Positions 7,892 through 26,998 of a DNA stretch of 64,000 nt are shown piece after piece. The DNA comes from Escherichia coli (GTDB lineage: Bacteria > Pseudomonadota > Gammaproteobacteria > Enterobacterales > Enterobacteriaceae). The translations under genes and the position numbers were made by a program. The notes under the pieces were generated by a model. That model searched no databases. It was given only the letters and a program-made list of their open reading frames with translations, and was not told the DNA's origin. Each line of letters begins with the position of its first letter. The stretch's first letter is position 1. The stretch is taken from NCBI GenBank assembly GCA_902500055.1, contig GCA_902500055.1_4131.1, one strand, 5' to 3'.

Positions 7892-9502
7892 TTATTGTTG
7901 ACGTACTGTTTCCCAGTTACCATTTATTTGCATTTGAACATAGCGATAACTAATTCGTTCTAAGTGAGTGCCTGAACTACCATTAACAGAAATCCATACG
8001 CCATCCATAAATGCACCTTCTGGTGTATATGTCCATGAAGAATCAGGTATTTTACGTGTTTCAATACGTGCACTCAAACGAATACTTTGTACGTTATTAG
8101 TACTAATTTGCAAAGTAACGTTGCCACTAGCATCAGCAGCAGTACCGTTAATTGAACGAACAATATTTTTACCACCAACAGTAGCTGAGTTGTTAGAAAC
8201 AGTTAATGATGGAGCAGCTAAAGTACCAGAAGAGTTTACAGTAACTTCTGCTCCACCGGAACGCAATCTCAATGTATTATTTGAAGAGTTATGATACACT
8301 GCCGCACGCTCACCACCGCTTGCGTTACGGAAATATAGAACTAATGATGTATCATTTGACTTAATTGACGCACTGTTTGCAATAGTCAATGAACCAGTCA
8401 TTGTATCACCAGTTTTTAGTACATAACGAGTGTTTGCAACTTTTTCACTCAATGCAACGTTAGATTCAGCAATGTTATATAGATATGCAACGTTAAAGTG
8501 TTCCACATCAATGTTACTAATACCATGATAGTGTGGTTGGTTTCCACCAAGTGTGTTAGTGTTTCCACTAAATGAGTGAATGTGGTCTGGTGCTTCGTTA
8601 ATGTTATTGATTACAGTTGGTATACCGTTATCATTACTTGAAGTTATCGCATTTAGACCACTACGGTCCATACCTTTTAGTGCTTGACTATGACCATGAC
8701 GACCAGCAGCCCCTGTGGTCCCACTAAAACTAAATGAGTGTGATGGTAATTGGGCAACACTTAATACTGTGCCGCTAATATTACCGCTACTACCAATAAC
8801 ACTATCAGTTTTAGTTACACCAGATGTAGATATACCTTTTAAGTACGCTTTTTGGTTAAGGTTTGGTACTTGTTTAGTAATTGTACCATTTTCCCCCTCC
8901 CATTGCCACCACATACCATCAGCAAAACACCAACCGTCAGACGTTTTCCACGGAGCACCTTGTGAACCGTTTCTCCCACTTTGTCCATTCGATTGTCCTG
9001 ACATTTGTTCACGTATACTAGCAACAGATTGACCAGAAGTCAATGAATATTGTGTAATAGCACCAGGTTTAAGTGAAGTGTAAAGACCAGTTGGACCAGA
9101 ACCACCACTAGAAGCAGTAGGGAATACAATGTTTAAGGTTGTTCCACTAATACTTGCACTAGGAACAGTACTACTACTGTATGTTACACTTTCTACTTTT
9201 AAATTTAATTTTCGGTTTACTTCATCTAATGAAATTCTAATTGGTTCCAAAATAGTATCAGTATCATATACTGCAACCCAACTTGTACCGTTATGATACT
9301 TCAAAACTAATTCGCTTCGATCAAAAACCATTGCACCTTGTTCACCAGTAGGTAAAGTTTGTACTGGTATAATAACTGATGACGAATTAAAACGAATAGG
9401 TCTTGGGTTAGTTGGTGTACCACCAAGCACTATTAGTTCTAAAGATCCATTAGCACCAGTACTGGTCATTGTATCCAATGGGTTATTAAAACTTATGCTC
9501 AT
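7892..9502 (-). CDS. Tail fibre protein with His-x-His motifs (gp12/gp37-like receptor-binding fibre)
   Basis: 536 aa, Ser/Thr/Gly/Asn-rich fibrous composition. Contains GRHGHS, PDHIHSF and PHYHG (HxH motifs typical of T4-type fibre tips). Followed by a Tfa-like chaperone gene. Confidence 0.75.
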   Translation of the reverse strand: MSISFNNPLDTMTSTGANGSLELIVLGGTPTNPRPIRFNSSSVIIPVQTLPTGEQGAMVFDRSELVLKYHNGTSWVAVYDTDTILEPIRISLDEVNRKLNLKVESVTYSSSTVPSASISGTTLNIVFPTASSGGSGPTGLYTSLKPGAITQYSLTSGQSVASIREQMSGQSNGQSGRNGSQGAPWKTSDGWCFADGMWWQWEGENGTITKQVPNLNQKAYLKGISTSGVTKTDSVIGSSGNISGTVLSVAQLPSHSFSFSGTTGAAGRHGHSQALKGMDRSGLNAITSSNDNGIPTVINNINEAPDHIHSFSGNTNTLGGNQPHYHGISNIDVEHFNVAYLYNIAESNVALSEKVANTRYVLKTGDTMTGSLTIANSASIKSNDTSLVLYFRNASGGERAAVYHNSSNNTLRLRSGGAEVTVNSSGTLAAPSLTVSNNSATVGGKNIVRSINGTAADASGNVTLQISTNNVQSIRLSARIETRKIPDSSWTYTPEGAFMDGVWISVNGSSGTHLERISYRYVQMQINGNWETVRQQ

Positions 9503-20952: not shown

Positions 20953-20963
20953 TTTTCATATAG

Positions 20964-20989
20964 CCAGCACATTGTTGCTGGTTTTTTTT
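20964..20989 (+). terminator. Rho-independent terminator
   Basis: CCAGCA-cattgt-TGCTGG hairpin followed by TTTTTTTT. Confidence 0.6.
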
Positions 20990-21159
20990 GGTTTTAAACT
21001 ACAGAATTATTTGAATTGAATTATGAAAGGATTAATTTTAATATTATTGGATTCATCTAACTCATTTCATTCGTTAGCTGAAGAATATTCGTTACTACGT
21101 AACTCATATTCATTTAATTAAATTAATTATAAAGAACTTTAAAAGATTTAATACTTGAC

Positions 21160-21660
21160 GGGATTTGTTGAGGACATTTTCATCCCCCCGCAGGGGAATG
21201 AAGACAATAAAAAAGAGACAATGAAGTCTCTATTTCTTGACGCTGATGGTTTCAGCATTTATTGTATTGCGAATTTCTTAAAAATATATTAAGAACGAAA
21301 GCGGGTTGCTCTGTTTCTCTCTATCGCAGTCATGTGCAACGGTCGTCAGTCTTAATCATCCTGACACTCACCTGAAAGTCTATACAATCAAACTTCAGGC
21401 TGTTTATTAAAATCACTTAATAAACTCCCTTAGCAAATCTGGTAAGGTGCGATCCTTATATGTCTATCTAGGAACTCTCTGTATGCTTATCGGAGTTCTT
21501 TATTGAGCCGCATTGCCGTGAGGGGTTCAAACTATGCCCACATCTAACGGGTTTCTTTTGCTCATCGCACTGTTGAACTGCTCATCTGCCATCTACATTT
21601 TCGATAGGATCAGGTTCTAATTTATATGCATTTCTGCATTCAACAGGATTGTCATTACTA
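21160..21660. other. Candidate structured RNA or foreign-DNA remnant inside an ORF-free interval (20990-21790)
   Basis: No ORF of 60 codons or more on either strand across about 800 bp in an otherwise gene-dense genome. An 80-nt sample (21301-21380) counted by hand is about half G+C. Several imperfect hairpins. Strand and identity undetermined. Confidence 0.3.
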
Positions 21661-21735
21661 CAACAAACATTATAGCACTATTTTTAAAATCTTCCCACTA
21701 ATATCATAAAAAAATAAAAAAGTACTTAGTACATT

Positions 21736-21771
21736 TTTGAAGTATAAAAAAACCAAGTAACAAAACATTAC
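21736..21771 (-). terminator. Hairpin terminator downstream of the 21790-22341 gene
   Basis: CCAAGTAA-loop-TTACTTGG 8-bp stem followed on the minus strand by a T-run. Confidence 0.45.
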
Positions 21772-21789
21772 TTGGTTCATAAAAACTAT

Positions 21790-22341
21790 TCAATAATTTA
21801 TATTTTTTGATATGAAGTCTTTTATAATTTTAATGTGGTCATCTGAATACTTTATTCTAAGTAAAGTAATATTATTATCATAACAATACTTATTCTTAAT
21901 TTCATCATTTCGTTGTTGTTCAGCTAAACCTTCTTCTCCACCGAAGTATTCTATTGGTTTGAAGTGTTGGATACCATCATATTCTATTAGTAGATTAAGT
22001 TCAGGAATATAAAAATCAAATGGTAAATGATTGATGTTTTTACAACTATCAAATTTCTTTTCCATTTCAAACATTATATCACACGTTTTTAAAAAATTCT
22101 GAATTTCAATAACAGGTTTTGATTTTAGTTCTTGGTCTGAACAAACTGGACACCCTTGTTTTGCAGAAATGTGTTTATTAGGAACTACTGTGAAGTCACC
22201 GTGAATGTTACACGTAACAGTTATTGGATGGTGTGCATTGACATATATTGTTTTATTGTATGTGTAAATACTACCATGAATATTCATTGATTTATCTATG
22301 AATTGTTGTTGTGTAATTTTAGCTATTCTTGTGTACCTCAC
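21790..22341 (-). CDS. Homing-endonuclease-like protein: zinc-ribbon module fused to a PD-(D/E)xK (DUF559-like) nuclease domain
   Basis: N-terminus shares the zinc-ribbon repeat of the 10265-11419 protein (ITVTCNIHGDF...KQGCPVC). C-terminus FDFYIPELNLLIEYDGIQHF...LLRI resembles the DUF559/Vsr-like fold. Confidence 0.55.
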   Translation of the reverse strand: MRYTRIAKITQQQFIDKSMNIHGSIYTYNKTIYVNAHHPITVTCNIHGDFTVVPNKHISAKQGCPVCSDQELKSKPVIEIQNFLKTCDIMFEMEKKFDSCKNINHLPFDFYIPELNLLIEYDGIQHFKPIEYFGGEEGLAEQQRNDEIKNKYCYDNNITLLRIKYSDDHIKIIKDFISKNINY

Positions 22342-22386
22342 AAAACTTTTTAATATACATTATTTACAGAAACAGGACAAAACGCT

Positions 22387-26910: not shown

Positions 26911-26998
26911 TGTATTTTACTCTCCATGTTTAAATCCAATAGGTACAATCCTTGTACCATCAATGTTATTATAGCACCAAAAAGCAGTTTGTCCCACG

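Follow-up and report, generated by a model that had tools for sequence, protein, structure and literature searches.

What does a phage genome hold in an interval of some 500 nucleotides (nt) where no gene can be read? The interval considered here occupies positions 21160–21660 of a 64-kb window (the whole stretch of DNA analysed, of 64,000 nt), and an earlier note on this DNA had proposed for it a structured regulatory RNA, an intron or ribozyme remnant left by a neighbouring endonuclease, or a fragment derived from the host. These coordinates agree almost exactly with those of an element that represents a new family of large pseudoknotted non-coding RNAs (ncRNAs), equipped with its own promoter and terminator motifs; it has the compensatory pairs found in structured ncRNAs in general, and belongs to none of the named families that could be tested. 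The explanation that we consider probable is that this DNA constitutes a free-standing gene whose product, a large and highly structured ncRNA, is encoded on the minus strand and acts as a folded RNA, likely in trans.

An interval conserved throughout Rak2-like jumbo phages

The window is 99.7% identical to Escherichia phage ECO103 4-12-1 and belongs to an Asteriusvirus, one of the PBECO4/121Q-like phages within the Rak2-like jumbo group. No open reading frame (ORF) of 60 codons or more occurs between 20990 and 21790, as previously claimed, and none even exceeds 45 codons on either strand: the longest reaches 45 amino acids (aa) (21155–21292, plus strand), the others 32–37 aa. The core had also been described as richer in G+C and in pyrimidines than its surroundings, and this holds, with a G+C content of 0.35–0.47 across 21300–21600 vs 0.18–0.30 in both flanks (100-nt windows), and a plus strand that is pyrimidine-rich over the same positions since GC skew and AT skew are both negative. 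The two stem-loops that had been spotted by eye are present as well: the TTCATCCCC/GGGGAATGAA hairpin spans 21179–21202, and AGAGAC-aatgaa-GTCTCT lies at 21214–21231, where it is followed by a T-run and was retrieved by the scan as a minus-strand intrinsic terminator. The interval is bordered on one side by a terminator (20962–20983, plus strand) behind a complete 69-aa ORF, and on the other by the promoter region. The hairpin at 20962–20983, located between A- and T-runs and annotated as a terminator in phage G17, could stop transcription both ways, including read-through from the minus-strand RNA gene before it enters the converging baseplate-hub gene.

That this interval is more than chance is confirmed by the conservation of its core (21147–21632), which is 67–77% identical in distant genera (including Munch, GAP32, CBB, Serratia BF, fHe-Yen9-04, XbC2 and RaK2), and by the compensatory covariation presented below. 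The records from these genera contain 4–5 matching places each, almost never annotated, and throughout the Rak2-like jumbo phages every genome has 4–5 dispersed paralogs that share one orientation. In ECO103 4-12-1 the element occurs four times, always oriented alike (18.2, 128.3, 208.0 and 261.5 kb, the one at 128.3 kb being the window copy), and no second copy lies inside the 64-kb window. Three pattern scans of IMG/VR combined with nhmmer yielded 57 full-length copies, 46 of them below 97% identity; four additional pattern hits (L047, L062, L068 and L069) gave no nhmmer hit and were set aside as due to chance. Five paralog classes can be distinguished among the copies; GAP32, CBB and fHe-Yen9-04 have one member of every class and Serratia BF has most of them, so the duplications predate the separation of these genera. 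The paralogs are placed between unrelated complete genes. Among cultured phages the family was found nowhere outside the Rak2-like group, IMG/VR contigs other than jumbo ones had no copy, and no match was obtained in plasmids. Several records (PP886230, PQ390715, OR699282, OR699181 and others) display 2–5 coding sequences (CDSs) across the element annotated as 'hypothetical protein', which are almost certainly spurious.

The nature of the selected product can be read from the pattern of substitutions in the 46 non-redundant copies (<97% identity, median pairwise identity of ~0.6), to which the model of 95 pairs described below was applied. In an average-product-corrected (APC) G-test of all column pairs, Watson-Crick covariation dominates and is arranged in stacked helices, and RNAalifold (alignment A2) returns 45 pairs, 31 of which with compensatory change. 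When a model of 95 pairs including five crossing helices is considered, 85.1% of the cells are canonical, compared with 68.8% after shuffling and 35–40% when partners are slid by 1–3 columns; doubly changed cells amount to 687 (234 shuffled, 82–194 slid), and the covariation score to 0.413 (0.150 shuffled, ≤0.113 slid). On four of five measures, not one of 500 shuffles comes up to the real alignment. Pairing is complete (100%) in five helices, pseudoknot S5 among them, each with 2–4 covarying pairs, and reaches 99.6% in pseudoknot S1, with five such pairs. In the pseudoknotted centre, helix 6 is 100% paired with 4 covarying pairs, and all seven pairs of helix 10 covary; in the 3' domain, helices 14 (99.6% paired) and 16, 17 and 18 (all 100%) have 3–5 covarying pairs each. 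The same 95-pair model is kept in 11 bacterial copies that were found independently, with 4–19 further double changes in each. Compensatory pairs thus stand well above shuffled and slid controls, as found in structured ncRNAs generally, and the changes across related phages that the earlier note had recommended looking for are both present and strong.

Protein-coding capacity is not what is being preserved: no ORF is longer than 45 aa, indels are not multiples of three, variable inserts separate the conserved blocks, and ORFs overlapping the element in other copies match only each other's element DNA. A decayed protein-coding gene, which the earlier note had named as the finding that would overturn its proposal, is excluded by this disregard for frame together with the covariation. 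As selection preserves the fold and not coding capacity, the product would act as a folded RNA, most likely in trans. The structured part of the 'structured regulatory RNA' first suggested is therefore strongly supported by covariation, while its regulatory part is not, the element having the layout of a stand-alone minus-strand gene and not that of a regulatory leader.

Fold, strand and parts of the proposed RNA gene

The conserved module covers ~520 bp, and is organized on the minus strand as a promoter, the core, a CGUCAA box, a terminator, a C/G hairpin and a second CGUCAA box (Table 1). Host sigma-70 RNA polymerase would start near 21662, ~7 nt past the extended -10 element (TGCTATAAT, 21677–21669), read the ~390-nt core (21646–21261) and the CGUCAA box, and stop at 21231–21209, generating an RNA of ~450 nt whose 3' end is probably the U-run of the terminator. 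Most phage and bacterial copies have, at the corresponding position of that strand, a stem of variable sequence followed by U6–8; about 15 copies are without it. The sequence family, its base-paired structure, copy number and distribution, and the promoter and terminator motifs are demonstrated, whereas strand, transcript ends, early expression and action in trans are what we infer. The TGnTATAAT motif is not enriched (11 found vs ~9 expected); in the window it also occurs with a -35-like hexamer (GGGACA/TAGACA), at the N17 spacing of the RNA promoter, at 26976 and 50629 (both minus strand), two sites that are probably early sigma-70 phage promoters.

In the model, the core contains no fewer than four pseudoknots and folds into two pseudoknotted domains: a 5' domain formed by S10/S12/S11, S15, the S9/S14/S13/S8 centre and S16, and a 3' domain formed by S7, S1, and S5 running across S2/S4. 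The long strands joining these helices are invariant and A-rich, with invariant segments that include UAAGGGAG, GAUAGACAUAU, GACCGUUGC and GAAACAGAGCAACCCGC. Inserts are tolerated in the variable loops, for example a recurrent module of ~25 nt (GUACAAUAUAGAUCCGUCC), annotated as a repeat in UE-S1 (region L002 3613–3770). This module, of the form (U)UUGUACAAUAUAGAUCCGUCCAAAAUU, can be located in either of two variable loops (A2 columns ~345–395 and 520–560) in many phage and bacterial copies, and contains an AUACAAU equal to the 3' strand of S1, through which the module might pair with the S7 loop, either alternatively or between two molecules.

Table 1. Positions in the window of the promoter, helices, boxes and terminator of the predicted minus-strand RNA gene
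Feature	Position	Strand	Remarks
-35-like hexamer TGGGAA	21692–21697	-	17 nt upstream of -10; moderately conserved in family
Extended -10 TGCTATAAT	21669–21677	-	ATTATA (plus strand) invariant in 31/31 copies; flanking CA (TG on minus strand) ~90% conserved
Structured RNA core, ~386 nt	21261–21646	-	16 nested helices plus pseudoknots S15, S13, S5, S1, S16
S10	21646–21640:21570–21576	-	encloses hairpins S12 and S11
S12 hairpin	21639–21635:21626–21630	-	inside S10
S11 hairpin	21613–21611:21586–21588 and 21607–21603:21589–21593	-	inside S10
S15	21581–21579:21567–21569	-	crosses S10; middle pair UA 21, AU 14, CG 11, no exception
S9	21564–21560:21504–21508	-	pseudoknotted centre (21460–21564)
S14 hairpin	21550–21547:21516–21519	-	pseudoknotted centre
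S13	21513–21510:21460–21463	-	pseudoknotted centre
S8 hairpin	21498–21492:21472–21478	-	pseudoknotted centre
S16	21487–21484:21435–21432	-	S8 hairpin loop with downstream strand; beside invariant UAAGGGAG; GC/UA/AU and CG/AU covariation (helix 11)
S7 hairpin	21399–21392:21371–21379	-	3' domain (21261–21399)
S1	21388–21382:21267–21261	-	S7 loop with 3' tail; pseudoknot, 3' domain
S6	21365–21361:21345–21349	-	3' domain
S5	21340–21336:21305–21309	-	crosses S2 and S4
S2	21328–21324:21268–21272	-	3' domain
S4	21321–21317:21297–21301	-	3' domain
S3 hairpin	21295–21290:21275–21280	-	3' domain
Box 2, CGUCAA on RNA	21237–21256	-	TTGACG on plus strand at 21237–21242, small hairpin 21242–21256; TGAC invariant in all copies
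Putative intrinsic terminator	21209–21231	-	stem 21231–21226/21219–21214, U-run 21213–21209
C6/G4 hairpin UUCAUUCCCC-UGCGG-GGGGAUGAA (minus-strand sequence)	21179–21202		beyond terminator
Box 1, TTGACG on plus, CGUCAA on minus	21155–21160		direct repeat of Box 2; TGAC invariant

Which strand is the RNA? The minus strand is very likely the correct one, and several features point to it: the TGnTATAAT element at 21677–21669 is invariant; intrinsic terminators with stems of differing sequence lie past the core in this and most other copies; and in 31 of the 46 copies S4 has a middle pair that reads G.U on the minus strand only, replaced by A-U or U-A in the others. In the bacterial copies, G.U outnumbers A.C on the proposed RNA strand (58 vs 30), and a sigma-70 promoter (TTGAAA/ATGAAA-N18-TATACT) occupies the equivalent position on that strand. 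The minimum-free-energy z-score is more negative for the minus strand (-3.12) than for the plus strand (-2.20), the proposed RNA strand contains 34% A, and the RNA would be co-oriented with most genes of the genome. Two observations weigh against this choice, the bulk wobble over the 95 pairs, which barely separates the strands (85.1% vs 84.4% canonical), and the terminal pair of S13, which is U.G on the plus strand in 39/46 copies. Minimum free energies over all copies do not decide either; the strand call therefore rests on interior wobbles, promoter and terminators.

A functional plus-strand transcript, running rightwards from a promoter with Box 1 as its -35 hexamer (TTGACG-17-TTTCAT, 21155–21183), is accordingly improbable. 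It draws on the resemblance of both boxes to -35 hexamers (TTGACG-17-TATTGT at 21237 is listed in the scan as well), on the near-equal canonical fractions of both strands, and on some terminal pairs whose G.U form exists on the plus strand alone (S13, but also the invariant G.T at 21471:21499, and the inner end of S8). However, the box reads CTGACG in most genera, the candidate -10 elements are either not conserved or without the essential A in second position, no plus-strand terminator lies behind the core, and the minus strand is favoured by interior wobbles, promoter and terminators as well as by base composition, z-scores and the bacterial copies. Box 1 and Box 2 were likewise rejected as plus-strand sigma-70 promoters in their own right, their -10 not being conserved.

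The most invariant DNA of the whole module consists of the two boxes (YTGACG on the plus strand) and of the C6/G4 hairpin, in which CATCCCCC is 90–100% conserved as a sequence and not merely as a structure. Box 1 and Box 2 co-vary between lineages by taking the same base, in a non-complementary manner (covariation ranks 37 and 56). Behind Box 2, the plus strand (21242–21249) reads GCTGATGG, one mismatch away from the E. coli Chi octamer; a perfect octamer (GCTGGTGG) is present in the 261.5-kb paralog of ECO103 4-12-1 and in some metagenomic copies (L026, L018), other genera have GATGATAG at this site, and the resemblance is probably due to chance. Behind Box 1 (CGTCAG on the RNA strand), many jumbo-phage copies (e.g., L016, L037, L067) often show TATAAAT or TATAAT; the window has GTATTAAAT at 21154–21146. 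Such a motif is reminiscent of a -10 element or of a late promoter of the T4 type (TATAAATA), and the next gene on the minus strand may be transcribed from it. The bacterial copies have none.

Copies in enterobacterial islands and the alternatives to the proposed autonomous RNA gene

The family has a second habitat, in integrative islands of enterobacteria. Blastn against 5426 complete E. coli genomes detected a complete copy in two chromosomes (nhmmer, 447 bits), in an island of ~10.8 kb inserted between ybaA and ffs; such a distribution, in 2/5426 genomes and inside a mobile island, lends no support to the idea that the interval is host-derived. This island (LR-29-1, L073, NZ_AP027515.1 3473–3483.6 kb) contains a tyrosine integrase split by IS3, a DNA invertase, a DUF4326 gene and candidate defence genes (PDC-M45A/C-like, dual-OB, DUF488), and no phage structural gene is annotated in it. 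Its RNA copy is 80% identical to one jumbo-phage paralog class, and only one of its proteins (the DUF4326 protein) matches the jumbo phage. Iteron-like ATCGATCG repeats lie downstream of the RNA copy on the RNA strand (locus ~8330–8420).

Elsewhere, a pattern scan of 185,579 GTDB species representatives returned ten loci, all of them true family members, in hosts including Buttiauxella, Silvania, Citrobacter, Enterobacter and Serratia. A metagenome scan returned 76 loci, again all true (76/76), of which 56 have jumbo-phage flanks, 12 have recombinase/repressor flanks, and 8 are too short to be classified. The bacterial layout is constant, with a single RNA copy per island, and consists of a recombinase upstream on the same strand (of the tyrosine type or of one of several large serine types), the RNA, and a converging CI-like repressor (helix-turn-helix, HTH, plus S24); recombinase and/or repressor flank the RNA in the 12 metagenomic loci and in 9/10 GTDB loci, the tenth being a short contig. 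Behind the repressor lie further genes for a Cro-like protein, a conserved protein of 286 aa, an LprI-like protein and an invertase. The bacterial copies keep the whole module (sigma-70 promoter, core, Box 2, terminator, C/G hairpin and Box 1), and the extra double compensatory changes per copy amount to 4 in the E. coli island, 10 in Citrobacter and 13–19 in the recombinase-repressor elements. Between the recombinase gene and the RNA promoter, five loci (L074, L076, L079, L082, L083) conserve a perfect 13-bp palindrome (CCCTATAAATATC-GGTA-GATATTTATAGGG), which might serve as an operator or for recombination, or form a structure resembling a terminator.

How does this picture fit an RNA gene acting in trans? 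The RNA could belong to a ribonucleoprotein, serve as a decoy, self-assemble or be catalytic. Several points argue against such a gene. No transcript data were found in the literature for any Rak2-like phage, and tblastn revealed no protein common to jumbo phages and islands as a possible partner, the matches being limited to spurious element ORFs, one weak hit of no relevance and, in a single island, the DUF4326 protein. In most copies, Box 1 and the hairpin are located beyond the terminator, which a simple RNA gene leaves unexplained, and ~15 copies have a hairpin and U-run between the -10 element and the core. Lastly, dispersed, co-oriented copies at conserved positions form the pattern of a cis-acting site, phage RNA genes being more often clustered.

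Does the module instead mark an origin of replication? A cis-acting, RNA-primed origin of the ColE1 RNA II or T4 oriF/oriG type, with a strong promoter whose structured pre-primer RNA forms a persistent R-loop at the G6/C-rich hairpin and boxes for leading-strand priming, would account for much of this pattern: 4–5 copies at intervals of ~50–110 kb, in one orientation and co-directional with transcription, at positions that are syntenic across genera, and, downstream of the RNA, an invariant run of six G, a U/A tract and a pair of direct boxes that behave like DNA- or protein-recognition sites, their changes matching and not compensating. The DNA behind Box 1 is AT-rich, and T4-like recombination/replication genes (endonuclease VII, gp46/47) stand beside the window copy. 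Small islands would then carry a copy in order to be replicated by, or with, the jumbo phage, which would explain why unrelated islands, without genes in common with the phage, contain the full module. We nevertheless regard an origin as unlikely, because a multi-pseudoknot fold with invariant loops goes far beyond any known pre-primer, because a canonical terminator separates the RNA from the G/C hairpin in most copies, and because neither GC skew nor gene orientation shows an inflection at the four loci of ECO103 4-12-1.

A cis-acting transcription element (a put-like processive antiterminator, an insulator or a long leader), modifying the polymerase or mRNA of downstream genes, could equally be suggested by copies that are dispersed along long co-directional gene arrays, co-oriented with flanking genes at most paralog positions, and followed by terminators. 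Such a role is highly improbable, as the next downstream gene converges on the element both in the window (baseplate-hub gene) and in the islands (CI-like repressor), so that there is nothing downstream to read into; moreover, no downstream gene is conserved, and known put/nut elements measure ~70 nt or less.

The two habitats raise the possibility, which we put forward tentatively, that the RNA is a shared currency of Rak2-like jumbo phages and small islands with candidate defence genes, either (a) as a phage origin or cis signal letting islands be amplified or mobilised, or (b) as an RNA-only machine that the islands mimic in order to interfere with infection. If (a) were true, the islands would be the first satellites of jumbo phages; if (b) were, the phage would need a self-assembling or catalytic RNA in high dose. 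The second habitat in itself ties jumbo phages to chromosomal mobile elements via an RNA and not a protein. This RNA is strongly selected across a clade of E. coli, Klebsiella and Salmonella jumbo phages used therapeutically, each genome keeping 4–5 ancient paralogs that are mostly unannotated or hidden under spurious hypothetical ORFs, and tractable hosts are at hand, as with the E. coli K-12 phages Sharanji and 121Q.

Comparison with known RNA classes

The family is previously undescribed. With Rfam 15 no hit is obtained in the 64-kb window at the gathering threshold, and when the limit is relaxed to E≤10 the core remains without a match (Intron_gpI included), both in the 951-nt interval and in nine other copies; the weak matches are restricted to terminator-like small RNAs outside the core. 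The covariance models of GOLLD, ROOL, OLE, raiA, HEARO, RNase P, group II domains and small self-cleaving ribozymes do not match, ARAGORN detects 0 tRNA or tmRNA genes in the window, and searches of the literature on Rak2-like, Asteriusvirus and Sharanji phages and on large phage RNAs brought up no account of the element. None of the known intron, ribozyme or tRNA-like classes, for which Rfam and tRNA checks had been advised, is matched by the core. A hammerhead reading of CUGACGA in the boxes was also discarded, the stem II/GAAA geometry being absent and the strand wrong.

A homing-endonuclease-like gene does adjoin the interval, as had been remarked: the 183-aa ORF at 21790–22341 (minus strand) matches HNH and homing endonuclease families (phrog_559, 1e-50; phrog_9084, 4e-30). 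The order S9(5')-hairpin domain-S13(5')-S9(3')-S8 hairpin-S13(3') reproduces the P3-P4/6-P7-P3'-P8-P7' order of group I introns, in topology only. Together with the endonuclease gene and the copies in two E. coli chromosomes, this could suggest a remnant of an endonuclease-associated self-splicing intron or mobile ribozyme, a decayed protein gene or captured host DNA, to which we give next to no credence. The endonuclease ORF exists in 2/72 related phage records (ECO103 4-12-1 and EC22.5-2, the two near-identical ones), while in G17, UE-S1 and ~70 other records the element is intact without it, directly adjoining the endonuclease VII gene. P1/P10, exons and an interrupted gene are all lacking, no Rfam intron or ribozyme matches, and the element has its own promoter and terminator. 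Where a P4-P6 domain would be expected there is one bulged hairpin of ~38 nt, and the 'P7' is a helix of 3–4 bp in which no G-binding site can be recognized. A pseudogene is excluded by the compensatory changes and by indels that break the frame, and the location of the E. coli copies in a rare mobile island speaks against host DNA. The endonuclease gene looks like a recent free-standing homing endonuclease insertion; the inserted segment (21729–22350) separates the promoter region of the RNA gene from the endonuclease VII gene, and has its own terminator (21778–21750).

ColE1 RNA II and the T4 origins oriF/oriG resemble the element in relying on a promoter-driven transcript of ~450–550 nt whose fold matters, with a G-rich segment and an A/U tract near its end, and T4 has several dispersed origins that prime from promoter transcripts. 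In contrast, no equivalent of the antisense RNA I exists at the 5' end of the element, its fold is far more complex, and its terminator precedes the G/C element. Prophage morons also have their own sigma-70 promoter and terminator, and the island copies sit in the recombinase-repressor region beside candidate defence genes; the motifs of an independent transcription unit (TGnTATAAT, TTGAAA-N18-TATACT, terminators) are present, the evidence being by motif, whereas the cargo is an RNA and not a protein, in an island slot that is fixed and not variable. Another example is the jumbo phage PA5oct, distantly related to the Rak2 group, where RNA sequencing (RNA-seq) revealed four long non-coding RNAs (lncRNAs) of 236–619 nt (PMC7318152). 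They are similarly ORF-less and transcribed from one strand. Three of the four (ncRNA001, 002 and 004) show no homology to the element (nhmmer --max, E≤100), and no structure is described for them.

Close analogies are also found with GOLLD, ROOL, OLE and raiA, which share with the element a length of several hundred nt, many covarying helices and pseudoknots, and invariant joining strands; they are stand-alone genes in phages or prophages, and had no known biochemical function when found. The present family differs from the GOLLD/ROOL type by its lack of an Rfam 15 match, by its occurrence in Enterobacterales jumbo phages (theirs being Lactobacillales or rumen phages), by its multiple copies, with 4–5 diverged paralogs per genome, and by the two CGUCAR boxes and C/G hairpin downstream, which those RNAs do not have. 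Large intricate natural RNAs are rare, and each earlier one (RNase P, group I/II introns, GOLLD, ROOL, OLE) gave new RNA biochemistry or architecture. GOLLD, ROOL and OLE are RNA-only homo-oligomers (PMC12286853), and by analogy with them the pairing of the S7 loop with AUACAAU could be intermolecular in the phage RNA.

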